IMG/VR virus record: IMGVR_UViG_2838736955_000001
DNA: 64,000 nucleotides
Source of the DNA: an uncultured virus (IMG/VR IMGVR_UViG_2838736955_000001)
Taxonomy: Duplodnaviria; Heunggongvirae; Uroviricota; Caudoviricetes
Reading direction: 5' to 3' (one strand)
This document shows, in pieces, positions 1,978 to 56,333 of this stretch. The number at the start of each line of letters is the position of its first letter. Within the stretch, counting starts at the first letter, position 1. Both the position numbers and the translations under genes were made by a program. The notes under the pieces were generated by a model. That model had not been told where the DNA came from. It ran no database searches and saw only the letters and a program-made list of their open reading frames with translations.

Positions 1978-2327
1978 CAGTTCGGCCCCGTATCATCTGC
2001 GGTGAAAGGTCGAGATGGCGCGGTGTATGGCTCCGGCTGATAGAAGTCGCCGTCGTCCATATCTCGAATGAACTTGCGCTTCTCTCGATCGTCCCATACG
2101 GCGCCGAAGACGTAGCTGCCGAGGATCGCCGCGATGAGCGTCAAGAGCGCAATGAGCGCCTGCTCAAGGATGGAATTGCTCGATTTGATGAAGCCAACGA
2201 CGGATGCCAGGATGATGCCCTGTGCGTTTGCCATGGCCCATAGGAGCACGCGGAACATCCAGCGCCGCCGGATCGGCCAATTGTCGCGAGTGAGTTCCTG
2301 GCTCAGTGCTGCAGCTTTCTTCGGCAT
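1977..2327 (-). CDS. Putative holin
   Basis: Two TM helices and a charged C-tail; TGATG coupling with the endolysin stop. Confidence 0.6.
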   Translation of the reverse strand: MPKKAAALSQELTRDNWPIRRRWMFRVLLWAMANAQGIILASVVGFIKSSNSILEQALIALLTLIAAILGSYVFGAVWDDREKRKFIRDMDDGDFYQPEPYTAPSRPFTADDTGPN

Positions 2328-2980
2328 CAGGCGGCATCCAGAAGAGCGGCATAGAACTTCTTGCCGTAGCCTGCGATATCGTTCGCCCGATCGAGGCCGT
2401 TGATAATCCGGCGCGCGTTGACCCAATCGGAACCATTGCTGGTGAAATAGTCGCCCAGCCGCTTGCCTGTGAATATCCCATCGCGCATGCCGATGGTGAT
2501 GATTTTTCCGGCCACATCGTCAGTCAGGGCAAGATCGGGGTTCGCAACCAGATCAATGCCGAGAAGGTCGGAGAACTTGCCGTAGTTGTCCTTGCCCGTG
2601 ATCTGGCAATACCCCCTGCCCCGATAACGCCATCCATCGCCGGAAGATTCCGAACCGTTGCCCATGCGGTTCCCATAGGCGCGGTTGGCGATCTTCTGGG
2701 GCTGGCGCGCGTAAGCCTTCGCATCGGCCGGCGAGAAGTATTTCGGGAACGTGTTCCGAAGCCCCTGCTCCGAATAGTTCAGGTTCTCAACAATTGGCTG
2801 GAAGGTGCCGCCGGTCTCGATCACAGGTGTTGCCAGGATATAGGCAATGTGGCGAGGATCGTTGACCTTGAAGGCGGCGGAAGCATCGAGCATGGCTTCG
2901 ATCCCTTCCACCTGTGGCTGGTTCATCCGCCCGTCAAACACAGACGTGCGCACCCCAGCGAAGAACTTCGCTCGATTCAT
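2327..2980 (-). CDS. Endolysin, glycoside hydrolase family 19
   Basis: ETGG...ENLNYS, GDGWRYRGRGYCQITGKDNY and RRIING motifs. Confidence 0.9.
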   Translation of the reverse strand: MNRAKFFAGVRTSVFDGRMNQPQVEGIEAMLDASAAFKVNDPRHIAYILATPVIETGGTFQPIVENLNYSEQGLRNTFPKYFSPADAKAYARQPQKIANRAYGNRMGNGSESSGDGWRYRGRGYCQITGKDNYGKFSDLLGIDLVANPDLALTDDVAGKIITIGMRDGIFTGKRLGDYFTSNGSDWVNARRIINGLDRANDIAGYGKKFYAALLDAA

Positions 2981-3026
2981 GGGTTTCTCCGATGTTGATG
3001 ATGTCAGGTCAGAAAGGCGGGCATAG

Positions 3027-3051
3027 AAAAAGCCGCCTCAGTGGGCGGCTT
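3027..3051 (-). terminator. Rho-independent terminator upstream of the lysis genes
   Basis: Minus strand AAGCCGCC-CACTGA-GGCGGC-TTTTT. Confidence 0.7.
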
Positions 3052-3129
3052 CAGGTTGGCCTCATGGTTTTCTCACGGGGACGAGATCAGCGGCTCTCTC
3101 AGCAACCCCGGATATTTAGGGAAGACCGT

Positions 3130-3822
3130 TTAGTTGCTAAATCGCAGCAAAGTTCGCCTTACGAACGCGCGAGCCTTATCTATCGGCGAAGCGTGCCACG
3201 TGCGGAAGATGGCACTCGTGCCTGTAACATGGATTAACTCAGCCGTTCCGAACACTTTGGCAATCCGCGATGCCCACCACTCTGGAGGCTTAACGGTAGC
3301 ATGTGCGTTCTCACCGTTGGGAAGGACCATGTCAGCCGGCCTCGTGTCAGCAGCTATAATCGCGTGAGTGGTTAGCGATCGAATATGATGAAGAACGGCC
3401 GGGATCTCTGCCTCGTCCAAATGCTCGAGAACATCTGTGCATGTAACTATATCGTATCTCGAGTGAGGCACTTTGCTTATCTCTGGAATTGCCGGGTCAA
3501 ACCGGTGACGCACGCCAAGCGTCCTGGCACGCAAAAGTTCGACCGTTTTGCTTTGCCCTGCCCCGTAATCTAGCATCGAAGCCGGCCTCCGACTGATAAT
3601 CCACGGCTCGATCCATCGGCGCGCCTTTGCAGAGCCAGTGCCGTACTTTTGACGTCTGTGAATTTCCGCATACTGCTCAAGATTTCTTGTCGCTACCACG
3701 ATCGACCCCTCTGGAAATCTGAGATTGGTATATCTTGGGACGACAGACAGTTCCACTACCGTACCGAGTATTTTTCTACTTGAAGCGTTACTGAATGCGG
3801 AATTACAATCGGTTGATGTCAT
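3130..3822 (-). CDS. Class I SAM-dependent methyltransferase (true start probably near 3700)
   Basis: MLDYGAG motif I, YDIVTCTDVLEH, NAHATVKPPEWW. Confidence 0.85.
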   Translation of the reverse strand: MTSTDCNSAFSNASSRKILGTVVELSVVPRYTNLRFPEGSIVVATRNLEQYAEIHRRQKYGTGSAKARRWIEPWIISRRPASMLDYGAGQSKTVELLRARTLGVRHRFDPAIPEISKVPHSRYDIVTCTDVLEHLDEAEIPAVLHHIRSLTTHAIIAADTRPADMVLPNGENAHATVKPPEWWASRIAKVFGTAELIHVTGTSAIFRTWHASPIDKARAFVRRTLLRFSN

Positions 3823-3833
3823 TGGGGATCAAC

Positions 3834-4502
3834 ATGTCGTTCTTGCCGGCGCTTAGGAGTTTCCTAATGAAGCGGTCATCGCTTCCATTGGAGTTTACAG
3901 AGAACGTTTTTGTGCTGGGATCCGGGCCAGGGTCCTCTATTCCAGACGAGCTGGACGATTCATGGTCACTTGTTTCGATCAATGCCTCGCAAGCAGTTTT
4001 AAAGGATGAAACGATTGTTCCTGATTTCACGTTGTTTGGCACATCGACGTTACGCAACAAGCCGACCAATCGCGAAGCAAAAGACGTGCTGCGAGGCCGT
4101 AAAACTCGAACACTTATTCTATTCGATCGAGAAAAATTCATCGACAACCAACGGTACAAGCTATTTCGCCTCGGATACAGCTATGACCGTGTCATTTTTT
4201 TATCCACTGCCGAGCGCCTGGCGTGGATCCGCGGTGCAACTGGCATAGCCGTTAAGGACAACACACAGAAGCCCAGCAATGGAGTGGCGGCCGTTTTCCT
4301 GTGCGTATCATACGGTGTGAAAAAGATAGTCATGACCGGCTTTTCGCTAACCAAGCAAGGCCACGCGTACAACAACAAGAACCGGGAACGCGCTCACGTT
4401 CGGGGTGACAGAGCAGCATTGCGATCAGCGCTAATGCGAGGCCATCCAATTTATACCAATCAGGCGGATTTTTCAGAAGAATCAGGGGTTCCGCTGATCT
4501 GA
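3834..4502 (+). CDS. Sialyltransferase-like (GT29/GT42-like) glycosyltransferase-fold protein
   Basis: VFVLGSGP..INA, KPSNGV..A, IVMTGFS..GHAY..H motifs. Confidence 0.6.
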   Translation: MSFLPALRSFLMKRSSLPLEFTENVFVLGSGPGSSIPDELDDSWSLVSINASQAVLKDETIVPDFTLFGTSTLRNKPTNREAKDVLRGRKTRTLILFDREKFIDNQRYKLFRLGYSYDRVIFLSTAERLAWIRGATGIAVKDNTQKPSNGVAAVFLCVSYGVKKIVMTGFSLTKQGHAYNNKNRERAHVRGDRAALRSALMRGHPIYTNQADFSEESGVPLI

Positions 4503-4550
4503 AGCGAATTCGGGTTAGAATTGCCTAACCCGCGATTGAAGTTCTGTCTG

Positions 4551-4766
4551 CTACAGGTGATCAATGATGTGACCGTCTAGAGCATCGATACCCAAGCAGA
4601 TCACAGTCAGACAAAACAATGCAACTAAATACTTGACTGAGTGCGCCCGAAAGGTCGTCTCGGTCTTCTGAAGTATCGCCTTGTTGAGTAGCAAGTTAGC
4701 TCCCTCAACGTCGCCGATCGCCGCCCGATCCACGATTTCGGAGGCGAGATCCCTGTCATTCTTCAT
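4551..4766 (-). CDS. Small membrane protein
   Basis: AGGAG RBS; C-terminal TM helix. Confidence 0.55.
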   Translation of the reverse strand: MKNDRDLASEIVDRAAIGDVEGANLLLNKAILQKTETTFRAHSVKYLVALFCLTVICLGIDALDGHIIDHL

Positions 4767-4829
4767 CGAATAATCTCCTAAGATGGAGCGGCCCTATCGG
4801 CTATTCCTGACGCTAACCTGAATTCGATG

Positions 4830-5549
4830 TCAAACCGACATACCAACCAACGAAGACACGTTTATGCCAGCAGCCTCGCCGTGCTTCCAAATCTGCCGAT
4901 GAAGCCTTGCGCGATATCTTTTCAGTTTGATGCGGTTCAGCACTCCGCTCATCGCGTACATCCCGACTGGTGATTTCTCACCGGTGCCGTCGACACAAAC
5001 TACCCTCGGGTTGCTCCCCCCCCCATCGCACCAGACGAAATTACCAAGATTACAATCCATCAAAACTATGTGGAGACGTTGTGCCTCGCTGAAAAACTCG
5101 TTCAAGCCATCAAGGTGGTTCTGTTCGAAACGACGCTCCTCGATTAGCCTTCGCAGAGTTGGAGCCAATGAGCCGTCACGCGAGGACACTCGTTCAACAA
5201 TCATCCCCAGGCCCTGGCTTGTCTGAACGAAACCGAAAATCTTGGCGATCGGGAGGCGCTTTTCCTCGCCCGCAAATTTTCTCGCCAAGTTGAGATACTC
5301 TTCAAGCTCCCGACGGAAAACCATGTATGCGCCAAACCGACGCCACTTTTTAAAAAAAAGAAGTTTGCTCTTAACTTTTCTGTTGCCCCCCGCCGATTGA
5401 GCGGATGGCTTCACCGTTTTGATGACGACGTCTGGATGCATTCTGTTTTCGAAAATGTTTCTCGAGGCTCCATGCCCTGCAAGCCGCCACTGCGCGAGGT
5501 CAACATAATCTAGCGAGAACTGCATTTCACTCATACCATTACCTGTCAT
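4830..5549 (-). CDS. YrbL-family kinase-like protein
   Basis: LAGHGASR, HPDVVIK, GFVQTSQGLG, IVLMDCNLGN, VCVDGTG (protein-kinase-like fold). Confidence 0.75.
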   Translation of the reverse strand: MTGNGMSEMQFSLDYVDLAQWRLAGHGASRNIFENRMHPDVVIKTVKPSAQSAGGNRKVKSKLLFFKKWRRFGAYMVFRRELEEYLNLARKFAGEEKRLPIAKIFGFVQTSQGLGMIVERVSSRDGSLAPTLRRLIEERRFEQNHLDGLNEFFSEAQRLHIVLMDCNLGNFVWCDGGGSNPRVVCVDGTGEKSPVGMYAMSGVLNRIKLKRYRARLHRQIWKHGEAAGINVSSLVGMSV

Positions 5550-5929
5550 TCAATGCTCGTCCCCTGAATGCTAGCATCATCATATATCTCGTATCTAGGA
5601 GACTTTTTCCCTCCGGAAAGAATGTGAACGCTGTTGCTACCCGACGTCTAACCATCAACCCGTCCCGCCGGGATATCCTCTCCCCGCTTGACCAATTTCG
5701 AAAAAAGGAAGCGGCCCTCGTTACCACGGGCAAACGCAGACTGCCGCCCCTGGCTTGGAAACGGTGGCATCGATCGGAAAATGATAATTGCAGAACCGGA
5801 AGCGGAACTTCGAACGGCTGAACCCGACAATCATTTGGATGTGGGCGACACAACTGTGATGCGCGTGCGGTAAGCAACCAATTCGAACTTTGTCCGTTCT
5901 CGCGTCGTCAGAAACAGCAAGGATCAACG

Positions 5930-6085
5930 ATGAGCACTGGAAGCCAAGCCCGTTCGCGTATGTACATTTTCGTCGCCGCACTCTTTGTCTTGGGCCTGAT
6001 GCTTGTGGGCTACTACACATTCTTCCAGACTCCCGGTGAGATCAACGATGCGCCCGCCTCAGAGGTCGTGAACCCGAAGTCGTGA
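5930..6085 (+). CDS. Small membrane protein (51 aa, MSTGSQARSRMYIFVAALFVLGL...)
   Basis: AAGGA RBS; one TM helix; stop overlaps TGATGTCA; read by hand. Confidence 0.55.
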   Translation: MSTGSQARSRMYIFVAALFVLGLMLVGYYTFFQTPGEINDAPASEVVNPKS

Positions 6086-6185
6086 TGTCATCTCTAAAAT
6101 TAAGATGTGCTTATCTACGATCTGAAGATCGTATATCGCCAGCCGTCGGAGGCTCTATGTTAGGTCACCTCAACGGAGCCAAACA

Positions 6186-6272
6186 ATGCGCCTGACGATC
6201 TACAACTTTGTAATGTATGCTTCTTTGGTGCTCGTGGCGGCATACCTCTACGTGTTCGTGGATGTGACGTAA
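6186..6272 (+). CDS. Very small membrane peptide (28 aa, MRLTIYNFVMYASLVLVAAYLYVFVDVT)
   Basis: GGAG RBS; hydrophobic; read by hand. Confidence 0.45.
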   Translation: MRLTIYNFVMYASLVLVAAYLYVFVDVT

Positions 6273-6316
6273 CGCTCTATCGAAATTGCCATATTGCGGC
6301 TGTCGGTTCCGAAAGG

Positions 6317-6544
6317 TTGGCTGTGAAAGCCAACCGTGAACAGGAGCTACCCGTGAACATTGACCTCATTGACAAGACCAATCTCGCGTTTCGCCGCCTT
6401 AAGCTGGTGAAGATGGCGATCGAAGACATCGAAGATGAAGGTCAGGCGTCCGCTCTGTACGAGGGCGTCTACCTTACCGAAGTCATATTAAAGGAATTGA
6501 AGGAACTGCTCGAGAAGGCGCGATCGGAAGCGATCACTTCTTAG
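6317..6544 (+). CDS. Small helical hypothetical protein
   Basis: ORF; AGGAG RBS before the alternative GTG start at 6353. Confidence 0.6.
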   Translation: MAVKANREQELPVNIDLIDKTNLAFRRLKLVKMAIEDIEDEGQASALYEGVYLTEVILKELKELLEKARSEAITS

Positions 6545-6576
6545 CTCGATAGCACCGATGATGTCAGGGCGGTGGG

Positions 6577-6726
6577 TTATCGTAGGCTCGGAACTAAGAA
6601 CCAAAGTACTACGCATACGGCCAACAAAACGTATACTCCGGCATTAAGGACAGTCACCCACCGGTGCTTCGACCTAATTCTGCTTCCAAAACCTTCAGAC
6701 AAGGCATTGATCAAGAACTCAAGCAC
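6577..6726 (-). CDS. Small membrane protein (49 aa, MLEFLINALSEGFGSRIRSKHRWVTVLNAGVYVLL...)
   Basis: TAAGGAG RBS, GTG start; stop codon abuts the repeat; read by hand. Confidence 0.55.
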   Translation of the reverse strand: MLEFLINALSEGFGSRIRSKHRWVTVLNAGVYVLLAVCVVLWFLVPSLR

Positions 6727-6876
6727 CAGGGATCTCCTTAATACCCCATAGAGGTGTAGGCTCCGGGAGTTAACATCAAGAGCAAGATGTCAGGGTGCGG
6801 GGTGATCAGTCACTTGGTTGCAGGCGCCACAGGATTGTGCTGCTCTGATCAAGTTCATCGTTAGACAGGCGCCCAA

Positions 6877-7257
6877 ATGCTAATCCCGTCCTCGACATCC
6901 GACGTACTTCGCCGATTTGACCACTTCAATGACTCACTTCTCGGAGCAATATCGGTAGACTATGCGGAGCGCGCTCTTCCGCACATCCAAATCACGCTGA
7001 CATGCCAGGACGACGATGCAGACGAGCCGACATGGAGATCTTGCCGGATCGACTTCCACAATGTTCGTGAATTTAAAATCGAGCAGCGCACCAACTCAAC
7101 CCAAAGCGTGATTTCTTTTGGAATAGCGATCACGATTGAAAGCGGCATCACGTTTGTCGACTTTGACTGCCTAGGCGATACAGAGCGTACAGTTGAACAG
7201 GTTCGCTCCTCCGAATTTTACATCGGCGCGGAGCGCGTTGACTTCATCGTCCTCTAG
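6877..7257 (+). CDS. Immunity-protein-like hypothetical (Imm50-like)
   Basis: FDHFNDSLL..I....I.F.NV..F pattern of polymorphic-toxin immunity proteins. Confidence 0.5.
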   Translation: MLIPSSTSDVLRRFDHFNDSLLGAISVDYAERALPHIQITLTCQDDDADEPTWRSCRIDFHNVREFKIEQRTNSTQSVISFGIAITIESGITFVDFDCLGDTERTVEQVRSSEFYIGAERVDFIVL

Positions 7258-7278
7258 CGAAGGATGTCAGGGCGTGGG

Positions 7279-7476
7279 TCAGCTAGATCCAGAACAACGC
7301 GTCTTCATCAGCTTATTTTTCAGGTGTCCACCGTCGCTCAAAAACTCCAGCCAATAGCTCGATGCGACCTCTGCGGCGTACTCGCCAGGATTTCGCCCGA
7401 ACGGCAGCTTTCCGCTCTGGAAGCACTTCGTGACGACCGCCTGCACGAAACGACGATGGAATTCTTCTTCTGACAT
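7279..7476 (-). CDS. Hypothetical protein
   Basis: ORF fills the space between two repeats; stop abuts the repeat. Confidence 0.5.
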   Translation of the reverse strand: MSEEEFHRRFVQAVVTKCFQSGKLPFGRNPGEYAAEVASSYWLEFLSDGGHLKNKLMKTRCSGSS

Positions 7477-7599
7477 GCCCTGGAGTATATGGCACTGCCC
7501 ATCAACAATCGAGGTCTGATGTCAGGGCGGCGGGCTGTTGCATGATTTCCTGGCACACGTATCTTGTGCACTGCGAAACCCACTAGGCAAGGATCAGCG

Positions 7600-7809
7600 A
7601 TGCGGATCGAACTTCGTAGCAAGCTCATCGACGCGGCCGAGTACGATGCCTCCCAACTGCGTCTAAAGCTTTTCCTGACCAATGGTCAAATTCGTGAATT
7701 CGTTGACGTGCCCGCGCACGAAATTGATGCTCTCGCGGCGGCACGGTCGCCCGGATCATACTATCTCAAGTCGATCAAGGATCGTTACCAGCCGTCGACT
7801 GCCGCGTAA
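7600..7809 (+). CDS. KTSC domain protein
   Basis: SKLI....YD....L.L.L.NG....F.DVP.......AARSPGSYY...IK..Y. Confidence 0.85.
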   Translation: MRIELRSKLIDAAEYDASQLRLKLFLTNGQIREFVDVPAHEIDALAAARSPGSYYLKSIKDRYQPSTAA

Positions 7810-7818
7810 TGTACCCTG

Positions 7819-8916
7819 CTACAAGGCCCGGGGACGAAGTCTTCCGCCAAAAAAGCCGGCAGCTTTCCGCCCCGCGGCGATGCCTGGTACCTCAATGTAA
7901 GCATTTGCCAGCCAAGCCAGCGGAAGCGTAATGAGGAATGTCAAGAATGCGGAGAGGATGAAAACTACCCACCCCTGATCGAAGCCGGCAATACGGACGC
8001 CGTTATAGACTAGAGTGAGAATATTGAAGTGCAGGAGATAAAGCGGAAAAGAGATGTCTCCTAAGACCTGGAAGACCTTTGCAGCAAGTAGCCTCGGCCA
8101 CGACGTAAGAAACATTACGGCCATGACTGGAGCGATTAATACAGTCTCGGCCATCACCACGAGAGGGCTTGTATTTACATTCAACTCCGGCGCAACCCAG
8201 TGGGCTACTGGACGCACGAAGTTGAACGCTAGCAGAAACCCGATCGACACAACGCTGGCCATCACCGGTGTTGTTCTAAGCACTTCTCGAGTACCGACGA
8301 CGAACGGTATGCAAGCCCCGACAAAGAATGGGACCAGAAAAATCTGGAGTTGATAGGGTGTTGAGACCGGCACGTAAGCCAGCGCGGATATCGCGACCAG
8401 CCACAGCCAGCGAAAACGAGATGCAGCGGCAACAGCCAGAAATGGCATGAGCGCAGAAGCGACGATTTCGATGAAAATAGACCAACTTGGCCCGTTTATT
8501 TTGAGTGTCGCCCCAACAAACCCGACGAGAAATACGTCAATTCTAAATGGCCCCGTCAGCGGCTCTTGGTATGGCAGTTGGGGGTGAATAGAAGCGACGA
8601 AGACACCCGATGCTATATTGACCACGATCATAAGCGGCATCAGTCGAAATGCCCTGCGAATGTAGAATTTTGTCAGTTCCGAGACACCACCAGAGGCCTC
8701 CAAGGCTGAGGGTGACAAGACAATCCCGCTCATCACAAAGAAAAGCACTACCGCCGCAGATGCATTGAATAGCCCTGACGGAAGGGAAAAACCACTTCCG
8801 TATTGTGTTGCAATGTTGGCTGTGTGGCCGAGAACGACTATGCATGCGGCAATACCGCGAGCACCGTGTAACGACATAGAAAACTTTTGGTCATTTACAG
8901 GAGTAGCGTGGGTCAC
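7819..8916 (-). CDS. Acyltransferase 3 family (OafA/Oac-like O-acyltransferase)
   Basis: LHGARGIAA..VVLGH, AVVLFFVMSG, FYIRRAFRLMP, WSI..E, LGDISFPLYLLH, IEVP; multi-TM. Confidence 0.9.
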   Translation of the reverse strand: MTHATPVNDQKFSMSLHGARGIAACIVVLGHTANIATQYGSGFSLPSGLFNASAAVVLFFVMSGIVLSPSALEASGGVSELTKFYIRRAFRLMPLMIVVNIASGVFVASIHPQLPYQEPLTGPFRIDVFLVGFVGATLKINGPSWSIFIEIVASALMPFLAVAAASRFRWLWLVAISALAYVPVSTPYQLQIFLVPFFVGACIPFVVGTREVLRTTPVMASVVSIGFLLAFNFVRPVAHWVAPELNVNTSPLVVMAETVLIAPVMAVMFLTSWPRLLAAKVFQVLGDISFPLYLLHFNILTLVYNGVRIAGFDQGWVVFILSAFLTFLITLPLAWLANAYIEVPGIAAGRKAAGFFGGRLRPRAL

Positions 8917-9046
8917 TTGCGGATCTCAACTTGAGGTTATGCGCTAAAGTGCATGGTCCATCGAAATCCGCAAGTGGTACGCGCGGTAAGATCTCCGCTC
9001 ACCGACACCTGATGGCACGAGCTAGACTTACGATGCTCAAGTTCTA

Positions 9047-9283
9047 CTAGGCGGTGCCCAGTAGGTTCTCACCCGCAGCCCTGAGATCGTCCATTGAGAC
9101 GTTGACCCTTGCATCAGTTGAGCCGGGCGCAGCAACGATAGCCGGGCCTCGCATGGCCGGCTCGCCATCGACCTGAGCGAAGACGTAGAAGCACGCGTCA
9201 TCCATTCCCTGATTTTGCAACCCCGCAACGACGTGCGTATCGAAATGCTCCCGCAGATCCTTGTTTACTTTCTCGATCTTCAT
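9047..9283 (-). CDS. Hypothetical protein
   Basis: GGAGA RBS; follows the tailspike gene. Confidence 0.6.
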   Translation of the reverse strand: MKIEKVNKDLREHFDTHVVAGLQNQGMDDACFYVFAQVDGEPAMRGPAIVAAPGSTDARVNVSMDDLRAAGENLLGTA

Positions 9284-9294
9284 TTTCCCGTCTC

Positions 9295-10839
9295 CTACGC
9301 CGCAATCTTGGTGATGAGGTCCGGCCCCTTGTCGCGGATGATGATTTCCTCCCCGACGTTCTGAACGTGCAGGCCGTCGCGCGTGACCGTGCCAGCCGTG
9401 GTGACAGTCGTTGCTGCAACAGCTGCCGGGTTCGGGAAGCTGCCATTATAATTCTTATTGACCCGGAACGTGGTGGCCGTGAGCTGTTCCACGATCATGG
9501 TGCTGTCCTTGATGTTCAGCGCTGCATCGTAAAGGTAGTCGTTCGGCTTGAAGGTGCCCGTTACAGTGCCGCCAGCCGTGAAGGTCGTGCCAGAGATTGC
9601 GCCGGCCGTGCAGCTTGCCGGCGTGCGAGCCGCGAGGCCAACGTCTGCGGAAACCGGATAAAGGCCTTCCCGCGTCGGATCGAGCGCATCGGCGATGTCC
9701 CACACGTAATCCTCGCCAACAATACCGGCGCGAATGCCATTGTTGAGTGTGAATATACGGTACTGGTTGCCGCTGTTATAGGCGCCGATATTCTGGTTTG
9801 CCTTCGTGACGAACACATCGGAAGAGCTGACGTAAGGATAGATCGTTTCCCCGATGATGATGAGATCGGATTTGATCGCCTTGAGGTTGGCAGCGCATGT
9901 GGCACGGTTGGCAAGGATCGTCGCTGCGGTCTGCGCATTTCCGATGTCGTTGGTGCCGTAGGCCGTGATCAGATGCGTCCAATATCCCTTGGCGAGCAAC
10001 TGATAGAAATAGGTATGAGACCCGGCGTTCCACTGCGACAGGAGCGTGGCACTCATGGCGAAGTTGGAATAACCGAAGACAGGACCCAGGATGCGGGTTT
10101 CCGGTCCGTTGTCGTAATTGGCCTGCAGGTTGGTGCCAGCGCCGCCAGCCGGGCGGCTATCTCCGATGATAACAGGCGACGGGGATGTCTTGGACGTGGC
10201 TATGACCATAGGAGCATAGACAGCACCGGATATGGAGCCGGAACCAGCCATCACCTTGTCATTGTCTGTGGTGCCAAGTTCGCAGAATTCCCCCGGCGCG
10301 CTTCCCCATTGGCTCTGGTTGCCGCCTGCAAGCTGCGTCCAGGTCACACCATTTGGGCCGACCACGTAGACGCGCATGAAGAAAATTGCGCCCCATGGGA
10401 TAACAACAGGATTTGCCGTCGTTCCGAATGTCAGCTTTGTGTTGCCGATAGGATGAGGCACGGCGGCGTTTCCGGCCGCGATACACTCGTTCGCAAGGAC
10501 TGGCGTGCTGCCGGCCGGATATTCGATTGCGACTTTGATAGTCGCACCAGCATAGCCATCCACTTCGCCGGCATTGCTGAATGCCCAGTTCGCATACTCA
10601 ACGACCGGGTTATACATCCGTTCGCGAGCGATATGGAAAGTCCGGCTCATATTGCGAGTGATCGAAGCGTTGCGGTTATTGCAGGGGAAGCATCGGGTCG
10701 CAGCGTTGCCGACGTATGCCGGGCGCGGAGCCATGACATCTGCATCGACGCGCACCAGCTGGCCTGCAGCGTTGACCGCCAGCAGGGAGGCAGCCAGGCC
10801 GAGGAGGACAGTCTTTACGTTTTTCTGAATTGTAGCCAT
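9295..10839 (-). CDS. SGNH/GDSL esterase-domain virion protein (putative tailspike/deacetylase)
   Basis: IIGDS, YGTND and DGLH blocks. Confidence 0.8.
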   Translation of the reverse strand: MATIQKNVKTVLLGLAASLLAVNAAGQLVRVDADVMAPRPAYVGNAATRCFPCNNRNASITRNMSRTFHIARERMYNPVVEYANWAFSNAGEVDGYAGATIKVAIEYPAGSTPVLANECIAAGNAAVPHPIGNTKLTFGTTANPVVIPWGAIFFMRVYVVGPNGVTWTQLAGGNQSQWGSAPGEFCELGTTDNDKVMAGSGSISGAVYAPMVIATSKTSPSPVIIGDSRPAGGAGTNLQANYDNGPETRILGPVFGYSNFAMSATLLSQWNAGSHTYFYQLLAKGYWTHLITAYGTNDIGNAQTAATILANRATCAANLKAIKSDLIIIGETIYPYVSSSDVFVTKANQNIGAYNSGNQYRIFTLNNGIRAGIVGEDYVWDIADALDPTREGLYPVSADVGLAARTPASCTAGAISGTTFTAGGTVTGTFKPNDYLYDAALNIKDSTMIVEQLTATTFRVNKNYNGSFPNPAAVAATTVTTAGTVTRDGLHVQNVGEEIIIRDKGPDLITKIAA

Positions 10840-10841
10840 GG

Positions 10842-11042
10842 CTATGCGGCCTCCATCGTGAGGATGTATTCGTTGCCGTCGAGATCGTCGAAGGTGAGGA
10901 TGTATTCGGAAGCATCAGGGTTATCGAAGGTCACGATGAACGTGCCGTCATCGACCTCACCGCCCTGTACCGGGGCGCCTCCAAGTGAGGCCAAAGATTG
11001 CGGCAGGCGGAGGCCGACCAGAGAAGAACCAAGCCCAGCCAT
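10842..11042 (-). CDS. Small virion-associated protein
   Basis: Coupled ORF in the tail operon; internal repeat EYILT. Confidence 0.55.
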   Translation of the reverse strand: MAGLGSSLVGLRLPQSLASLGGAPVQGGEVDDGTFIVTFDNPDASEYILTFDDLDGNEYILTMEAA

Positions 11043-13616: not shown

Positions 13617-13874
13617 CTAAGCGACCATCCCCTGTATCGAGACGTTGGACGCATCGATATCGGTGAAGGCAGCCCACCTGAGATCAGGTCGCATTTCCGA
13701 GAGCGCTTCCAGAAGCGCATTGGTGTGGTACCGGGCGACTTCCGCTGGCGTCGCGGCCTTTAGGAAGTCGTCCACAGAGACGGGCACCACCGGCGTTTCC
13801 GGCGCGTTGGTAGCCGCGTGAGACGTTGCCGCAATGACAAGGCCGGCTTTCAGGACTGTGCGGCGGTTCATCAC
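13617..13874 (-). CDS. Hypothetical protein with a twin-arginine-like N-terminus
   Basis: MNRRTVLKAG; coupled to the antirepressor gene. Confidence 0.55.
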   Translation of the reverse strand: MMNRRTVLKAGLVIAATSHAATNAPETPVVPVSVDDFLKAATPAEVARYHTNALLEALSEMRPDLRWAAFTDIDASNVSIQGMVA

Positions 13875-14590
13875 GCAGGTTCCATCGGCTTAGGAAACGC
13901 CTTCGCCAAGATAGTAAGTCCCTTGGCGGTGACGCGGACCTGAGTGGACGACCATTCCGTGCCATCAGGACGCGGGCCGGTGGTAATCTTGTGCTCCAAG
14001 CAGCCCGAAGCAATCTTCGACTGGTAGGCAAGATCGTCCGAAGTGCCAGGGCGACGGTATGTCCAGCCGTTTGTTCTCATCCATCGGATCAGGACGTTGG
14101 GTGACACGCCGAGGTTTTTCGCGGCAACGGTACGGTTAAACGTGCCATGTGATTCCGCAATCCGGTCCAGCGCCTCGACGCCCTCCCGCATCTCCTCGAC
14201 CTCGCCTTGAAGCTCGATCACTTTGTTCACGTTGTCGAGTAGCAGTGCCCGGAGGCTGGACGGGTCGTTCAGGTCAAAACGGGGCTTCGCGGCCTCCCCT
14301 TCCAATTCACGAAGCCGGCGTACCACCCGAAGCCGAAGCTCCGCGCTATATCCGAGGATCAGAGTTTCGGTGTGATCGCGATCGAGATGGTACTCAGTCT
14401 GCTCGCGGTTTCGGCTGTCTCGATAGATGCGCTCAAATTTGAGCGCATTGCCGCCAAGGTCCGAGAGCATCTTTTCGATGTCACGTTTGACGTTCTTGTG
14501 CTCCTTCTCCGTCAGTTCCGCGATTTCGCGGCTCGACATGGTGAGCGAGTTGCCGATTTGCACAGGCATGCGTTTGCTGCTATCTTCCAT
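13871..14590 (-). CDS. Rha-family/KilA-C (ANT) phage antirepressor
   Basis: TMSSREIAELTEKEHKNVKRDI (Rha) plus AAKNLG...W.Y...QVRVTAKGL (KilAC). Confidence 0.9.
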   Translation of the reverse strand: MEDSSKRMPVQIGNSLTMSSREIAELTEKEHKNVKRDIEKMLSDLGGNALKFERIYRDSRNREQTEYHLDRDHTETLILGYSAELRLRVVRRLRELEGEAAKPRFDLNDPSSLRALLLDNVNKVIELQGEVEEMREGVEALDRIAESHGTFNRTVAAKNLGVSPNVLIRWMRTNGWTYRRPGTSDDLAYQSKIASGCLEHKITTGPRPDGTEWSSTQVRVTAKGLTILAKAFPKPMEPA

Positions 14591-14641
14591 AGCGCATTCC
14601 TTTCTTCATCGATTGTGGTGCTGAATTGAGCGGGACGGTTC

Positions 14642-14821
14642 CTACGCCGTGGTCCCGCTCTTTTCGTTTTGTGGCTGGCTATCCCAGCCCGATCCGACTT
14701 TCAGGCAGCGTACGATTTCTCCGCTGAAACTCCTGTCATTCTTTGCAGCGTTCACCTTCAAAAGCTTCCGCAAACTTGAGGGGACTACGATGGTAATACG
14801 CACATGGTCTTCTTCGGTCAT
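14642..14821 (-). CDS. Arc-like ribbon-helix-helix repressor
   Basis: RITIVVPSSLRKLLKVNAAKNDRSFSGEIV..L. Confidence 0.8.
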   Translation of the reverse strand: MTEEDHVRITIVVPSSLRKLLKVNAAKNDRSFSGEIVRCLKVGSGWDSQPQNEKSGTTA

Positions 14822-14831
14822 TTCCTTCCTT

Positions 14832-14922
14832 TCACGAATTTCGTGAGGCAACGTAAATATGTCATTCACGAATTTCGTGGTCAATAGTGTTTATTGACTT
14901 TTTTCACGAGCGTCGTGATAAA
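14832..14922. promoter_or_regulatory. Three palindromic operators TCACGA-N3-TCGTG(A/G) overlapping divergent promoters
   Basis: Sites at 14832-14846, 14866-14880 and 14904-14918; TTGACT at 14894 (+) and TTGACC at 14884-14879 (-). Confidence 0.8.
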
Positions 14923-14927
14923 GCGTA

Positions 14928-15317
14928 ATGACCAGAGATGATGGCTACACGCGATACACCGTTAGGATCCCAACCCCGCTATACGAGAGGGTGAAGGAGG
15001 CTGCTGGCGAAAAGTCGGTCAATGCGGAAATCCTTGATACCCTTCAAAAAGCGTATCCGCCAAAATCTATTGATATTAACCTGTTATCCGACTTTCTCTC
15101 CAGTCTGATCGGGGTCAGCGCACCCGATGGCGACCAGAGCTATCTCGACTACATAAACTCAGCTCTCTCAGATGCAGATCAGCCGTGGACCGTGCGAGCG
15201 GGATGGGACGGGGAAATAAGCTTCTTCCCCTACGCGACCGATGCTTCTTCCAAAAAGACGCCTCGCATTCCTGGCGACGATGACGACGCCCGCATCGCTC
15301 GCAAGAACAAGCCCTAA
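14928..15317 (+). CDS. Mnt/Arc-like RHH repressor with C-terminal extension
   Basis: RYTVRIPTPLYERVKEAA..KSVNAEI...L; divergent from the arc-like gene. Confidence 0.75.
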   Translation: MTRDDGYTRYTVRIPTPLYERVKEAAGEKSVNAEILDTLQKAYPPKSIDINLLSDFLSSLIGVSAPDGDQSYLDYINSALSDADQPWTVRAGWDGEISFFPYATDASSKKTPRIPGDDDDARIARKNKP

Positions 15318-15579
15318 ACCTCCTTTTCTGATCGTGACCTCACTAAGCCGTTCACATTTGGCGCTGTAAAGCTCGCCCTAGATTTCTAGGGCGCGGGGTA
15401 TCGGGTTGAGCAAAACCAACACCTTGACCTATCTAATCTCCTCACCCTGTGATTTTTTGATGAAATGCGGGGGTGTAGTTATCCACAGGCTTATCTGCGG
15501 CGGAGTTTAACGATGTTCTGATTTCGGATTCGACTTTATCTCGCATTTTTGCTGAGGTTGATCCTAGCTGGAGGATCGA

Positions 15580-15903
15580 ATGAAACGCGTTGCCGCTGCA
15601 GTAGTAATTACTGCGATTTCTTCGCATGCAAATGCCGCGTTCGTAAGCGGGAATGACTTGCTCGAATTCTGCGATCAGTTCCGAGCGTCTTCTACCGGGT
15701 ACGTTTTAGGGGCCGTCGATACAATTTTAGTGTCTCAAGATAATGGGAACGTTCGGAAAACAGTTTGCCTCAGAGGCGGGGCAACTGGAGGGCAATTGAC
15801 CGATATTGTCTGCCAATATCTTAGAAAAAACCCTGCAGTCAGAGATTTTGGCGGCCCCGCTCTTGTCTCGATGGCTCTATCTCAGGCGTTCCCATGTCAG
15901 TGA
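15580..15903 (+). CDS. Rap1a/Tai-family immunity-like periplasmic protein
   Basis: Signal peptide; SGNDLL..C...GYVLG..D...C...Q...IV..YL..NP...LV..AL..AFPC. Confidence 0.8.
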   Translation: MKRVAAAVVITAISSHANAAFVSGNDLLEFCDQFRASSTGYVLGAVDTILVSQDNGNVRKTVCLRGGATGGQLTDIVCQYLRKNPAVRDFGGPALVSMALSQAFPCQ

Positions 15904-16289
15904 TCCGGATCATTCCACTAGCCCTTGTCGCTATAGCTCTGGCCAGCTGCGAAACAACACCGGTCGAACAACTTACTTACTCCGAGAAAAAAGCTCTTGC
16001 TCAGAAGATGGTCGACCGATGCCTTGCGCAAGGGATCCCATTGAAGTCACCAGAGATGATGACATGCGCCCATTCTGAATTGGACCGAGACATCGCCTTG
16101 CGCAACGCAAACGCTTCTCGCGCTACCAACGCCCGTCTGGCTATCGCCAATGGCATATCATCCTACGGACAAACCCTGCAGCAAAACGCAGCTAGCTATA
16201 ATGCAACACGGCCGGTAAACTGCACGACTACGCCGCACAGCACATTTGTTGGTGGCGCACCTTCGAGCTACACAACGAGCTGCTATTGA
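15894..16289 (+). CDS. Lipoprotein
   Basis: Lipobox LASC; paired cysteines. Confidence 0.75.
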   Translation: MSVIRIIPLALVAIALASCETTPVEQLTYSEKKALAQKMVDRCLAQGIPLKSPEMMTCAHSELDRDIALRNANASRATNARLAIANGISSYGQTLQQNAASYNATRPVNCTTTPHSTFVGGAPSSYTTSCY

Positions 16290-16465
16290 ACACTATCGAC
16301 CACGACCCGAACGAGCATCACAAGTACCCCAACTATGGCGAACGACGCTGGGCGGAGGAAAAGCACGGGCGACCGGCCACGCCACTCGACTTGGTGAACT
16401 ATATCTGGCCCATCGCATGTGTTGCGGTGGCCCTGTTTCTGTGGCGGAACGGCTGGCCCTTCTAG
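16286..16465 (+). CDS. Small membrane protein (59 aa, MNTIDHDPNEHH...)
   Basis: TTG start overlapping the upstream stop; C-terminal TM; read by hand. Confidence 0.5.
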   Translation: MNTIDHDPNEHHKYPNYGERRWAEEKHGRPATPLDLVNYIWPIACVAVALFLWRNGWPF

Positions 16466-27125: not shown

Positions 27126-28118
27126 TTACTGCGATGCCGACATGCCGAAGAGATCGGCCGCGACGCCGAGGCCCCTCTCGTTGCCAACCTTCAGCGTGCC
27201 TTCGCCGATGATTACGCCCTTGTCAGCGTCACCCGTCTTCGCAACGCCCTTGTCTTCCTGGATCTTGCGGAGCCAGAGGAATTCGAGGAATTCCGGGTCG
27301 ATGAAGAAGGTGTTGCGGGCGATGTTGGGCGACGTGGACATGACGCGGTTCGGGTGAACCATGACCGTGCCGAACGGGCCTTCGTACATATCCGCCGAGG
27401 CGACGATCGTACGACGCTCACCGCCATTGCCGGAAACAGCATAGCGGAAAGGAGCAACGTTCGCGTCCGACATGAAGGTGACGAACACCGACTTGATGTA
27501 GGACGAGCCCATGACGTGCTTGAACGATGCGCCGCTCTGGTATCCCTGCTGCATCACGTTATCCAGAATGGTCTTCGTGAATGCGCGCTGGGTGCCGTTC
27601 GTGGCTGCAACGGTGAAGCCGTTGGTGAAGCCGCCGTTGGCGCCACCGGCACCGCGGGAGACGTTTGTCTTGATCCACGAAGGCAGACCACCGAGACGAC
27701 GAACATTGCCGCCGACCGATCCCTGGTTGCTGACGATAGCGTATTCGACGTCCTTGCGGATTTCGACGCCCTTCTTCAGCTTCTGGTACCGGCGCTTCTG
27801 GACCTTGCCGGCTTCGTCGACAACTTCCTGGGTGTTTGAGATCACCCAGTCCTTGCGAAGGATCTGAGTGTAATCGCCGAGGCGTTCCGGCGGAGTGACT
27901 GCTCCGAAGGTGTATTCTTCACCTTCTTCGCGGGCGTTGTCGCCGGGAGGAGCGAGTTCATCCGTTTCCCATTCGGGATGAACAGACGAGCACTTGCCCT
28001 TTTCGATCATGGAATAGATCGGGGTGTCTTCCGGGGTGATGCGGGAGACCACATCCGAAAGCTCTTCACGGTTGCCGACCGCACCAGACGTGCGGACGGT
28101 ATTGGAAATGACAGCCAT
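27126..28118 (-). CDS. Major capsid protein (DUF5309/SU10-like)
   Basis: GNREELSD.V..I.P.DTP...EWETDEL, YTQI..K, LAKTGD-like, GE.TL. Confidence 0.9.
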   Translation of the reverse strand: MAVISNTVRTSGAVGNREELSDVVSRITPEDTPIYSMIEKGKCSSVHPEWETDELAPPGDNAREEGEEYTFGAVTPPERLGDYTQILRKDWVISNTQEVVDEAGKVQKRRYQKLKKGVEIRKDVEYAIVSNQGSVGGNVRRLGGLPSWIKTNVSRGAGGANGGFTNGFTVAATNGTQRAFTKTILDNVMQQGYQSGASFKHVMGSSYIKSVFVTFMSDANVAPFRYAVSGNGGERRTIVASADMYEGPFGTVMVHPNRVMSTSPNIARNTFFIDPEFLEFLWLRKIQEDKGVAKTGDADKGVIIGEGTLKVGNERGLGVAADLFGMSASQ

Positions 28119-30317: not shown

Positions 30318-31316
30318 TTACGTGGCTCGCCCGGCCCGGTAGAGGGCGCCGAAACGGTCATCCTCAGTTGCAGGAGGCGACCAATCGTAAAGGCCTGCAG
30401 CTACACCAGCGCCGGCGGCTGCAGGTCCAACGCTATTGAACTGGATGATATCTCGGAGCTTTGGGTTGTCGTTGACGTACTGGCGGATGCGCGCCGCTGT
30501 CTCAGGCGCAACGGTCTTGATGTAGTTCGGGTCCGCCATGTAAGCGCGGATTGCTTCGGTCATCAGCTCTCGCGGCACTTCCGCACCACGATAGCCATTT
30601 TGCTCCGGGCCGAAAGGCTTGCCGAAGCTCTGCGGGTTGTTGATGTCGTTGTAGACGCTGCGGAGTTGCGCATTCAGACCGCCATGCGGTATCTCGCCGG
30701 CGGTCTGGTCGATGACATGACCGATTTCGTGCTGTGCTACGCGGCTGCGCTGAGGCTCTTCGAGCGATCGGGAGAGAGCGACATGATCAGGCTCGCCACT
30801 GCTTCCGAACTTTGCCCGGCCCACGTCTCGTCCAAGTTCCGGAGATCCCGGCGCAACGTAACGTATTGCCTCGCCAGTTCGCGCCTTTGCGATCTCGTCC
30901 AGTGCTTCACGCGGTAGGCCCACATCAGGTCCGGACACTTCCCCTCTTCCCACCACATATCGGGCAGAAAGTTGCCTTCCATCAATGTCTGATACAAGCT
31001 TGCCTGCGTCATCAGATAGGGCTCCAGCGGGGTAATCCGCCTCGAACGGACGAGGCGATTTCACCGGAGGATCATACAGTCTTGGGTTCCTGCTGGCAAC
31101 GTTTTCGGTGGATTTTGCGAGGCTCCCGCCCGATGCAACACCTCCAAGCATAAGGCCGGCAGTGTCGACAACCCGGCCCATATCATCTGGCCTTGCGTGC
31201 CCTGCCAGCACATCCCCCGGATAGGTAAAACCGGACCAAACACCTTTCACTGCATCCGCAGGAATGCTGTCATTGAGAATGTATGCCACGATCTTGTCGC
31301 GAAGAGACTCTGTCAC
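30318..31316 (-). CDS. Portal-adjacent protein with HExxH zincin-like motif
   Basis: AQHEIGHVID followed by ELMTEAIRAY. Confidence 0.65.
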   Translation of the reverse strand: MTESLRDKIVAYILNDSIPADAVKGVWSGFTYPGDVLAGHARPDDMGRVVDTAGLMLGGVASGGSLAKSTENVASRNPRLYDPPVKSPRPFEADYPAGALSDDAGKLVSDIDGRQLSARYVVGRGEVSGPDVGLPREALDEIAKARTGEAIRYVAPGSPELGRDVGRAKFGSSGEPDHVALSRSLEEPQRSRVAQHEIGHVIDQTAGEIPHGGLNAQLRSVYNDINNPQSFGKPFGPEQNGYRGAEVPRELMTEAIRAYMADPNYIKTVAPETAARIRQYVNDNPKLRDIIQFNSVGPAAAGAGVAAGLYDWSPPATEDDRFGALYRAGRAT

Positions 31317-33388: not shown

Positions 33389-34864
33389 TTACGCGACAGC
33401 CTGCGTCTTGAAGTTCCAGTCAGATGCCGGCTTGTTCACCTTGGCGTGCCGTTTCATCATGAGGGCGTATCGAGATGCTGAAATCACGTCGTCTCGCTCC
33501 TTCACGACCTTGCCGTCCTTCCGGTGATAGAGGCGGAATTCCTCGAACCATTCGCCGCAGGTGGAAAACACCTTCCAGCGCCCGGTCTGCATCCTCTGCA
33601 GCATGTCGAGTAGTCCGGCCTCAACGCCATTTGTTCCGTCTTCGAACGTTGCCCGCTCCGGCAGCATCCCGAGGCCCTGCGCCTTGTATTGCTTGGCCAG
33701 CTGCTCACCGCTGCCCTTGTCGTGCTGCAATCCATCGTGCGGCCACGACCAGGGCAACCAGCTACCCCATGGCTTAAGCGCCGCGGAATGGATGATCGGC
33801 GTGGCCTCGCGCTCGCGATAGGTCTTCGTCACATAGAAGACATCGGCGTCGCGGTCCCACGCGCACCCAGCAGCCCCGAATGGGTGATCCCAACCGAAGT
33901 CCAGCCCGCCGATCTGGACCCAATGCTTTGGGATCTCGAACGGGGCGATAGTGATGCTTTCCTCGGTAACCGGGAAAATCCGGCCCGATCCAAGCGTCGG
34001 AATGCCTTTTGCTCGTGCTTCTCGTTCATGGGCCGGGTAGCTGGCGATGATCTTCGCCCGGTCCTCGGGTGTGTAATGCTCCGCGTCGTCGATCGTCATT
34101 GACGTGACGTGACGCGACAAAGCCCCGACATCGCCAGGAGCCGGCATGATGAACCGAGCAACTACCGTCGAGATGCCGAGCAGCGGCGTGAACGTTGTCT
34201 GCGCGAACTGCCCACGCTGGCCGTTGTTGGTTCGCGTCAGGCCTTCGCTATAGATATCTTCCGGCGGCTCTTCATCGTACCAGACGCCGTCGACCGTCGG
34301 GCCCTGCCATTTCTCGCGGCCTTTCTCGTAGGCCTTAAAGGCGATGATGCTTTCCGATGCCTGGATGTCGCCGCCACCGCCCCAGCGCACCACGACGCTA
34401 TCGAGGAGGTTCGGGACGCCCATGGCGCGAGTGCGGTCAACGATGCAGTCTTGCGGGACGAAGCCGGTACCCCATTGCTCTTCAATTGCCGGCGGTCCGA
34501 TCAGGATACGCTGCGGGTTGTCGCGCGTGCTTTCGCCTGTGACCGAGCCAGCCCAAAGAAGCGGGGCCCTGTTGAACGTCGCGCCTTCCCACCAATCCGG
34601 ATACCGCCCGGTAAGGTGGATTGCCCATTCAGCGCCGCCAGCGATGGTTTTGCCCAGCTGGTTGCCTGCCATGAACAGCCGTTCGGACTTTTCCGCCCCT
34701 GCGGCGTGGAACTCCCGCTGCTTCCGATATGGCTTGTAGAACCGGAGCTTGTTAGTGCGCTGTCTGCGCTCGATCTCCGCCGTTATCTCCATCCTCTCCA
34801 TGAGCAGAGAGGAAAGGCTGGATGGTGGCGTCGAGCTTCCTGATGCGCTCGATGAGCTGTTCAT
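33389..34864 (-). CDS. terL: Terminase large subunit
   Basis: Walker A AGNQLGKT, Walker B VWYDEE, TFTP, nuclease LDFGW and DD..SA.RY. Confidence 0.95.
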   Translation of the reverse strand: MNSSSSASGSSTPPSSLSSLLMERMEITAEIERRQRTNKLRFYKPYRKQREFHAAGAEKSERLFMAGNQLGKTIAGGAEWAIHLTGRYPDWWEGATFNRAPLLWAGSVTGESTRDNPQRILIGPPAIEEQWGTGFVPQDCIVDRTRAMGVPNLLDSVVVRWGGGGDIQASESIIAFKAYEKGREKWQGPTVDGVWYDEEPPEDIYSEGLTRTNNGQRGQFAQTTFTPLLGISTVVARFIMPAPGDVGALSRHVTSMTIDDAEHYTPEDRAKIIASYPAHEREARAKGIPTLGSGRIFPVTEESITIAPFEIPKHWVQIGGLDFGWDHPFGAAGCAWDRDADVFYVTKTYREREATPIIHSAALKPWGSWLPWSWPHDGLQHDKGSGEQLAKQYKAQGLGMLPERATFEDGTNGVEAGLLDMLQRMQTGRWKVFSTCGEWFEEFRLYHRKDGKVVKERDDVISASRYALMMKRHAKVNKPASDWNFKTQAVA

Positions 34865-56071: not shown

Positions 56072-56328
56072 TGACAAACACGGTCGACCTGAACCGCAAC
56101 GTTCCGCGCCTCGGTCTTAACCGCCTTGAGGTTGCCCAAGCCATTGGCGTCAGTGCCAACACCGTCGATGTGATGGTGGATGAGGGATTTTTGCCGAAGC
56201 CGCGAAAGTGGCACAGCCGCAAGGTCTGGCTGGTTGCCGAGATAGTCACCGCCATGGCATCTTGGCCGGAAGAAGGTATGCAAGCAGCTGGGGAGGCCGA
56301 CGGCGAAGATTGGAGCATGTCGGCGTGA
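56071..56328 (+). CDS. Excisionase/AlpA-like HTH protein
   Basis: LNR.E.A..IGVS..T...MV..G.LPKP; immediately upstream of int. Confidence 0.75.
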   Translation: MTNTVDLNRNVPRLGLNRLEVAQAIGVSANTVDVMVDEGFLPKPRKWHSRKVWLVAEIVTAMASWPEEGMQAAGEADGEDWSMSA

Positions 56329-56333
56329 ACGAC

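Follow-up and report, generated by a model that had tools for sequence, protein, structure and literature searches.

A 17-bp sequence tag at the borders of exchangeable gene cassettes in a Rhizobiaceae prophage and related chromosomes: a possible integron-like system

Introduction

The textbook means for bacteria to store up and exchange genes one at a time is the integron, which depends on a single enzyme family and a single kind of folded site. This site, attC, is an imperfect inverted repeat of about 57-141 bp that folds single-stranded; clusters of attC sites without an integrase are known as CALINs. The present paper concerns a 17-bp sequence, here called the tag, which separates small genes in a stretch of 64,000 nucleotides from an uncultured virus (IMG/VR record IMGVR_UViG_2838736955_000001). 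The whole stretch is referred to as the window, and most of it is the prophage of a SU10-like podovirus.

Several other systems make use of short repeated sites. In the shufflon of plasmid R64, the Rci recombinase acts on inverted sfx sites and thereby flips segments of pilV; conservation within an sfx site is limited to one arm and the crossover region. In cluster A mycobacteriophages, stoperators are bound by the prophage repressor and block transcription; they are restricted to one group of phages and do not border cassettes. The pdif sites of plasmids are 28-bp dyads, in which a XerC and a XerD arm are separated by a 6-bp spacer, and they alternate in orientation around the modules that they bound. 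According to the accessible parts of two reports, dif (pdif) modules of Acinetobacter plasmids are moved by XerC/XerD and are thus small accessory modules between short sites, with the enzyme encoded elsewhere and extensive shuffling among replicons (PMC6449649, PMC13141974). Likewise, the available portions of two reports on T4-type phages describe PeSL cassettes, composite promoter-terminator (stem-loop) motifs which flank ORFans in hyperplastic regions as short intergenic sequences and mark breakpoints of insertion, deletion and replacement (PMC2839356, PMC4122927). The tag resembles each of these systems in part, and we compare it with them below.

Results and discussion

Four copies of the tag, named M1 to M4 (Table 1), lie on the + strand of the window at 6560, 6786, 7263 and 7518, as a preliminary description based on the sequence had proposed, and each separates one-gene units. 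They follow the pattern GATGTCAGGG(C/T)G(N1-2)GGG, and the exact 10-mer GATGTCAGGG occurs four times in the 64 kb, only at M1-M4. The preliminary description suggested that unrelated single genes had been added or shuffled at this short repeat. This was borne out when assembled contigs of public runs were aligned to window 2900-9400: the same cassettes were present elsewhere, next to unrelated neighbours, and the similarity broke exactly at the tag. A 4.8-kb contig (X13) was the same as window 6786-7274, with 2 differences in 489 bases, and had unrelated DNA on both sides; a contig from another run (X15) showed the same match, again with unrelated DNA on both sides. In both, the match begins at the first base of M2 and ends inside M3, at 7274. 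A contig from a compost metagenome (X4) matched window 6560-7274 with 4 differences in 715 bases, beginning at the first base of M1, upstream of which 983 unrelated bases replaced the 791 of the window. In a further run (X9) one contig matched window 6560-6795 with 2 differences and continued with 409 unrelated bases, while a second joined the window at M4 and had a left flank like that of a site in genome G412 (L155 7304).

The same was seen in assembled genomes of the genus. G481 carries the cassette of the 126-aa gene with about 96 % identity between the tags, as counted from alignment columns (mean column identity over the whole alignment, flanks included, 93 %), and is unrelated to the window beyond both tags. 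The similarity of X4 and G481 to the window also ends inside M3, at 7274. The cassette of the 65-aa gene follows a tag in both G412 and G481, each time with a different left neighbour. When all pairs of loci were compared, shared segments had 313 internal ends, of which 46 fell within 10 bp of a tag, compared to 4.6 ± 2.2 for random placement (maximum 12 in 1000 trials). The expectation that variable genes begin and end at the motif is thus supported by an approximately ten-fold enrichment of segment ends at tags.

The position of the joint within the tag could also be narrowed. Tag positions 1-10 are nearly invariant and positions 11-17 more variable; in 33 pairs of sites sharing only the upstream flank, 98 tag differences were at positions 11-17 and 16 at positions 1-10. 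The unusual 3' half TGCGGGG accompanies the cassette of the 126-aa gene in the window, in G481 (as TGC-GGG) and inside the X13, X15 and X4 matches from 6786. An odd 3' half, CGAAGTG, is common to L155 5950 and L196 3382, together with the downstream flank only. As the variable 3' half travels with the downstream cassette, the crossover is placed in GATGTCAGGG. Cassettes have been exchanged between arrays and organisms by breakage and joining inside the tag, and the exchange maps to its near-invariant 5' part, GATGTCAGGG. The exchange is recent, since cassettes are more than 99 % identical in different organisms, whereas the backbone of a related prophage in X13 is only about 87-89 % identical to that of the window.

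The tag is not restricted to the window. Its consensus 17-mer is GATGTCAGGG-CGGYGGG, and in all 84 genomes of the genus of Aliirhizobium smilacinae we found 62 matches at ≤1 mismatch, in 22 of the 84 genomes, compared to 7 for the reversed control. The copies were most numerous in G481 (12), G412 (9) and G002 (8), followed by G455 and G451 (4 each) and G433 and G442 (3 each). In G002 (Aliirhizobium smilacinae PTYR-5) the exact pattern gave 5 matches (reversed control 0), and 51 were obtained with ≤3 mismatches (control 9). Among 401 sampled genomes of the family a match was present in 15; more than two copies, and also two separate copies on one contig, occurred only in G002. The metagenome contigs contained, among the matches listed, at least 121 stretches with the tag, 117 of them without a second copy on the same strand. 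Small same-strand arrays were present in L236, L268, L292 and L312, a weak second same-strand copy in L238 and a second copy on the opposite strand in L277.

To describe the sites, 34 loci (290.6 kb) with 81 sites at ≤3 mismatches or in a form with one base deleted were fetched; L189 was excluded because its two copies sit in repeated coding sequence. In the 19 loci with at least two sites, 62 of 65 sites had the strand of their locus, and the 45 spacings between tags ranged from 82 to 7281 bp. Judged from 63 copies at ≤2 mismatches, including the two of L189, the 17 bp alone are conserved and their flanks are random, and perfect copies were kept where the cassette DNA was only 72-82 % identical between genomes. 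The tags avoid long frames, 20 % being in an open frame of ≥150 aa compared to 54 % of random places.

Such a distribution bears on the simplest alternative, namely that the repeats are a local duplication or a chance similarity of no wider meaning. The window has only four good copies, and the IMG/VR viral contigs gave one match per locus among the matches listed, as this alternative would have it. It is nevertheless scarcely credible, as arrays of the same 17-mer are present in no fewer than 11 further genomes of the genus, besides the four in metagenome contigs. In the window, GATGTCAGGG at ≤1 mismatch gave 14 matches against 4.28 ± 2.04 in shuffled sequence, and the 7-mer GATGTCA 21 against 8.77 ± 2.47, neither value being reached in any of 100 shuffles. 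The count against chance which the preliminary description had left to be made therefore came out far above both the window shuffles and the genome-scale reversed controls. A REP-like motif scattered across the chromosome, which would have spoken against its proposal, was not seen either. Repetitive extragenic palindromic (REP) sequences and Rhizobium intergenic mosaic elements (RIME) are scattered palindromes of high copy number; the tag is not a palindrome, never exceeds 12 copies in a genome at ≤1 mismatch and is confined to arrays. The same holds for clustered regularly interspaced short palindromic repeats (CRISPR), rightly dismissed at the outset, which have regular repeats of 23-50 bp and spacers of about 30-40 bp, compared to 17 bp and whole genes between the tags.

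A dependence on the SU10-like phage was considered and rejected: the SU10-type capsid family was found in 7 of the 84 genomes and in none of the seven richest in tags. The preliminary description had also named annealing by the RecT-like protein of the phage as a possible agent. This role is disfavoured, because arrays are chromosomal as well and the multi-copy genomes lack the SU10-type capsid gene.

The arrays outside the window are varied in content and location. G002 has three, the first in the urease operon, where it lies between the genes for a DUF2459 protein and a redoxin, the second beside proS and a lolE-like gene, and the third beside a TonB-dependent receptor gene. Their cassettes, in either orientation, include two Barstar-like genes, DUF6678, DUF982, GFA and an Agenet/Tudor protein, and the Barstar cassette is present in two of the arrays. 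A PAS-domain cassette is common to G412, G442 and G433. Tags surround polysaccharide genes in L159, L179 and L188, and adjoin prophage tail or lysis genes in L163, L195 and L196. At L160 4735-7927 (G433), two tags surround a complete pair of a BglII-like restriction endonuclease and an MT-A70 methylase, adjoining a phage lysozyme gene; this pair is a defence system borne as one cassette.

The smallest cassettes bounded by tags (122-135 bp) are formed by a small-RNA-like unit of about 85 nt, present in many copies (Table 1). Upstream of it is GGAAC-N17-GTT, which we take to resemble the consensus of general-stress (EcfG/RpoE2-type) promoters. The unit itself contains a terminator and two hairpins, in which base pairs have changed in a compensatory way (CG to UA, AU to GC). 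No Rfam family reached the gathering score, either in the arrays or in this unit, and from its sequence the unit looks like an undescribed small-RNA family.

To the left of the first tag in the urease operon of G002 there is an element of about 320-350 bp (L135 3402-3717), of which most genomes of the genus have several copies at 73-92 % identity. The spot between the DUF2459 and redoxin genes (L135 3364-5694; L164-L177) is hypervariable across the genus, with inserts of 40 to about 2300 bp in various genomes, mostly without a tag.

We suggest that the tag serves as recombination site in an integron-like cassette system of one Rhizobiaceae genus, with a putative recombinase acting in trans, and estimate the probability of this reading at roughly 0.55. 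A cassette would be one gene in either orientation, a small-RNA gene or sometimes a few genes, with a tag on each side; it starts in the 3' half of one tag and ends in the 5' half of the following one. When excised it would carry one whole tag, as a circle, and insertion beside a tag would leave a tag on each side, building up an array on one strand. The window prophage would bear one such array between its tail and endolysin genes. The joining would be carried out by a dedicated site-specific recombinase encoded elsewhere.

The likeness to integrons and CALINs is considerable. The arrays are on one strand and consist of mostly single-gene, mostly promoter-less ORFan cassettes; the junctions are hybrid sites, the distal part of which goes with the next cassette; and one cassette is found in different arrays and hosts. 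As in CALINs, there is no recombinase neighbouring the arrays. The preliminary description had seen neither attC palindromes nor intI, and both observations stand. None of the 84 genomes had an IntI-type integrase over the TIGR02249 cut-off, and neither of the two integrases of the window matched this model at E ≤ 0.001. This alone leaves a CALIN possible, since a CALIN needs no integrase nearby. No attC-like fold was found at the four window sites ±32 nt (z compared to shuffles -0.14, +0.45, -1.84 and +0.93), and the 17-bp tag has no palindrome. Furthermore, integron cassettes have one orientation relative to their site, whereas in the window and in L135 the tags keep to one strand and the genes between them switch between + and -, and the tag arrays, unlike integrons, sit in prophage moron regions and inside operons.

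Compared to pdif, the tag is an asymmetric, G+C-rich 17-mer without a dyad, and its sites are direct within loci; no plasmid match was obtained for window 5900-7850 with blastn. The sfx site, being short and asymmetric, offers a possible model for a one-armed site of 17 bp. In contrast to sfx, the tags are direct repeats with unrelated genes between them; the tag and sfx are not alike in sequence, and the arrays have no Rci-like gene beside them. An origin of the tag from a tRNA gene was rejected, as there is no tRNA in the window and none at 6 other array loci. Two arrays (L155, L157) have tRNA-Ser genes near them, and the tag is not part of either.

A number of observations weigh against the integron-like reading. 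Pfam scans of the flanks of about 35 loci revealed no recurrent recombinase gene beside the arrays, and there was no recombinase among 20 open reading frames (ORFs) scanned from metagenome array contigs. Seventeen asymmetric bases without a dyad are unlike most known core sites. Neither excised circles nor empty joints were seen in the runs, of which only assembled contigs could be used. The loci for the statistics of segment ends were chosen around tags, which inflates neither the observed nor the random figure relative to the other and limits the generality of the result. Decay is seen in many tag copies, and part of the arrays may thus be relics. In the window, a degenerate tag ends 33 nt before the left edge of the variable region (3049), which is therefore outside the tag. 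At the urease site, six relatives (G420, G431, G460, G408, G477 and G474) are empty, with 36-43 bp and no tag between the anchors, and four others (G407, G451, G455 and G452) contain tag-free inserts of 423 to 1669 bp. As both empty sites and tag-less inserts occur there, the spot is a general hot spot. The G002 array entered a site without a resident tag, since the empty site in the six relatives has none, and insertion at this locus needs no pre-existing copy. The tag-less inserts of the relatives indicate that arrays can arrive by other routes.

A different reading is that the tag is a regulatory or RNA element, either a protein-binding site or a transcript signal (CCCRCCGCCCUGACAUC), which each imported gene keeps, and that the repeats merely guide short-homology shuffling by general or phage recombination, in the manner of PeSL cassettes. 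The tag is antisense to late or lysis genes in all five prophage settings (the window, L160, L163, L195 and L196), lies 8-10 nt upstream of the GGAAC-type promoter-like box of the small-RNA units, is often directly 3' of an intrinsic terminator, and contributes, as a TGA on its reverse strand, the end of some reading frames. The phage of the window has RecT-like and NinB genes, and what is accessible of the PeSL reports provides a precedent (PMC2839356, PMC4122927). We consider this reading unlikely, though it deserves to be taken seriously. The strand of the tag is constant while the neighbouring genes face either way, and no fixed partner element is present downstream of it. Its orientation to transcription is not constant, since in chromosomal arrays (L133-L135) it has the same sense as the local operons and in prophages it is antisense. 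In contrast to PeSL motifs, the tag contains no promoter or terminator and also forms arrays in bacterial chromosomes: no sigma-70-like promoter, terminator or hairpin is in or at the four copies of the window, and within 2900-9400 the sole sigma-70-like match and all 4 terminator-like sites lie away from them. For exchange driven by homology, 17 bases are very short. Genomes with many copies lack this phage type, which also sets the tag apart from stoperators. These are likewise short asymmetric sites in many copies, in one orientation in the intergenic gaps of prophages; the tag is also found in chromosomes without the SU10-type capsid gene and marks breakpoints of exchange.

Fragments of insertion sequences (IS; IS5/IS1182-like DDE, IS110 and IS3) are in or near several arrays, and a short common sequence, gtccgctttcggcc, immediately follows the tag at four sites. 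The tags might thus be remnants of the ends of a transposable element (an IS or a miniature inverted-repeat transposable element), or sites that it prefers as targets, the cassettes being simply the DNA between insertions. We find this improbable, as an inverted partner end is absent, the copy number is low, conservation stops sharply at 17 bp and cassettes are moved whole, together with both of their tags. The idea of an IS targeting the tag was rejected because the DNA after the four gtccgctttcggcc sites is unrelated, and IS110 ends beside the tags were rejected because the flanks do not align. The transposon-relic and chance explanations are both largely excluded.

Returning to the integron-like reading, a wider proposal is that the tag belongs to an undescribed gene-capture system, currently active, in which a trans-acting recombinase recognizes an asymmetric 17-bp site and cuts in GATGTCAGGG. 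Single genes, genes for small RNAs and small modules for defence or surface modification would be carried in this way between the chromosomes and prophages of soil Rhizobiaceae, and the identity of more than 99 % between cassettes from different organisms and metagenomes would mark the present activity. We put this forward tentatively, at somewhat below even odds. A full-text search with the tag and its reverse complement, which did not cover subscription journals, returned only unrelated primers and no published description of the tag; within the same coverage, nothing relevant was found on integron-like cassettes in Rhizobium. There is a substantial chance that the enzyme and the class of site are new.

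The tag system follows the logic of integrons, i.e. same-strand arrays, hybrid junctions and one cassette in many contexts, without the integron enzyme or site. It does so in plant-associated soil bacteria and their prophages, whose moron regions receive genes for methyltransferases, acyltransferases and restriction-modification as well as ORFans. Should the enzyme be found, it would define a new system of site-specific recombination at a very small site, possibly useful as a tool, and would explain how ORFans spread at single-gene resolution between phages and chromosomes. With an exact site, retrievable genomes and near-identical cassettes in different hosts, the question is directly testable.

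The features of the window are collected in Table 1. The array is part of a variable region with a G+C content of 0.50-0.56, compared to 0.56-0.62 in the flanks, which includes several further small ORFs without a family. No close DNA relatives were found for window 2300-11000 in plasmid and phage collections with megablast. In a related Rhizobium prophage (L001), whose endolysin is 76 % identical, the variable region has no counterpart, and only a 71-aa ORF lies between the tail fibre gene and the endolysin gene. Homology of this ORF to the 78-aa ORF at the right edge of the variable region was considered and rejected, as the two do not align. A 50.7-kb X13 contig, the related prophage mentioned above, matches the window at 2984-3049 and 9078-9400, and 4244 unrelated bases replace the 6028 of the window between 3049 and 9078. 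Its similarity restarts within an inverted tag-like site.

Table 1 Features of the window and positions of small-RNA-like units in other loci
Feature	Position	Strand	Remarks
GH19-type endolysin	2327-2980	-	PF00182 E 8.8e-6; phrog_181 E 2.7e-64; left conserved backbone
Degenerate tag	3000-3016	+	First 9 bases GATGTCAGG intact; hairpin then to ~3049; conserved backbone
Low-GC variable (moron/cassette) region	3050-9077		~6 kb, between tail and endolysin genes
Methyltransferase gene	3130-3822	-	PF13489 E 5e-7; start codon overlaps core copy 3815-3821
235-aa gene	3795-4502	+	No assigned family; 75 % DNA identity to gene within G002 tag array (L134)
YrbL-like gene	4830-5549	-	PF10707 E 3.5e-31; stop is TCA of core copy 4826-4832
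51-aa small hydrophobic protein gene	5930-6085	+	Stop overlaps core copy 6084-6090
75-aa ORF	6317-6544	+	No family
Tag M1	6560-6576	+	GATGTCAGGGCGGTGGG, consensus 17-mer
226-bp cassette (tag included)	6577-6785	-	49-aa ORF 6577-6726, coding strand not proven; transferred as one unit
Tag M2	6786-6802	+	GATGTCAGGGTGCGGGG, unusual 3' half
126-aa gene	6877-7257	+	
Tag M3	7263-7278	+	GATGTCAGGGCGTGGG, 16-mer
65-aa gene	7279-7476	-	Conserved small-protein family
Tag M4	7518-7534	+	GATGTCAGGGCGGCGGG
KTSC-domain gene	7600-7809	+	PF13619 E 2.8e-13
Acyltransferase_3 (O-acetyltransferase-like) gene	7819-8916	-	PF01757 E 2.9e-27; phrog_3333
Inverted degenerate tag-like site	9072-9088	-	3 mismatches; inside 3' end of 78-aa ORF
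SGNH/GDSL-type tail protein	9295-10839	-	phrog_8480 E 8.1e-24; PF13472 weak; right conserved backbone
Capsid gene	27126-28118		
Portal gene	31313-33388		
Terminase gene	33389-34864		
RecT-like gene	50657-51634		
Prophage integrase	56208-57497		
DnaB-like helicase and NinB genes			In the prophage
Small-RNA-like unit, L155	5968-6050, 12977-13060, 15848-15935		
Small-RNA-like unit, L159	2630-2714, 3505-3590, 3832-3916		
Small-RNA-like unit, L161	4047-4130		
Small-RNA-like unit, L162	1605-1689		
Small-RNA-like unit, L183 and L190			

The finer placement of the genes relative to the tags agreed largely with the preliminary description. The minus-strand stop codons at 6577-6579 and 7279-7281 abut the GGG end of M1 and M3, and the genes ending at 6544 and 7257 stop 15 nt before M1 and 5 nt before M3, respectively. 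Of the two abutments, the positions are correct, and that of the 65-aa gene is the product of a frameshift: its C-terminus is frameshifted compared to the copies in L183 and L160, where the frame conserved in the family has its stop 4-5 nt away from the tag, and the window gene may thus be decaying. The sharing of 12 bp between M1 and the copy upstream of the endolysin gene was also verified, GATGATGTCAGG being present at 2997-3008 and 6557-6568. Eight copies of the 7-bp core GATGTCA on the + strand between 3000 and 7524, including those at 3000, 3815, 4826 and 6084, are all at gene ends, as had been noted for the last three of these. With regard to gene labels, that of KTSC was upheld, and the 126-aa protein may be immunity-like, judged by a weak Imm50 lead (19 % of one Atlas cluster, score 0.90).

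Some observations concern other parts of the window. A protein with a Tad2-like (Thoeris anti-defence 2) domain is encoded in the prophage at 54448-54972 (PF11195, E 9.4e-20). Past the prophage integrase and host-like DUF982 and ExoD genes, a second integrase of the P4 type, followed by an AAA_25/KaiC-like ATPase, is found at 60132-63637, and the two may form a separate small integrative element. A second patch of low G+C content at 13871-16300 (0.49-0.52 at 14501-16000) adjoins a Rha/KilAC antirepressor gene; it has no strong tag copy and one copy of the 7-bp core, at 14477, and may be another moron region.

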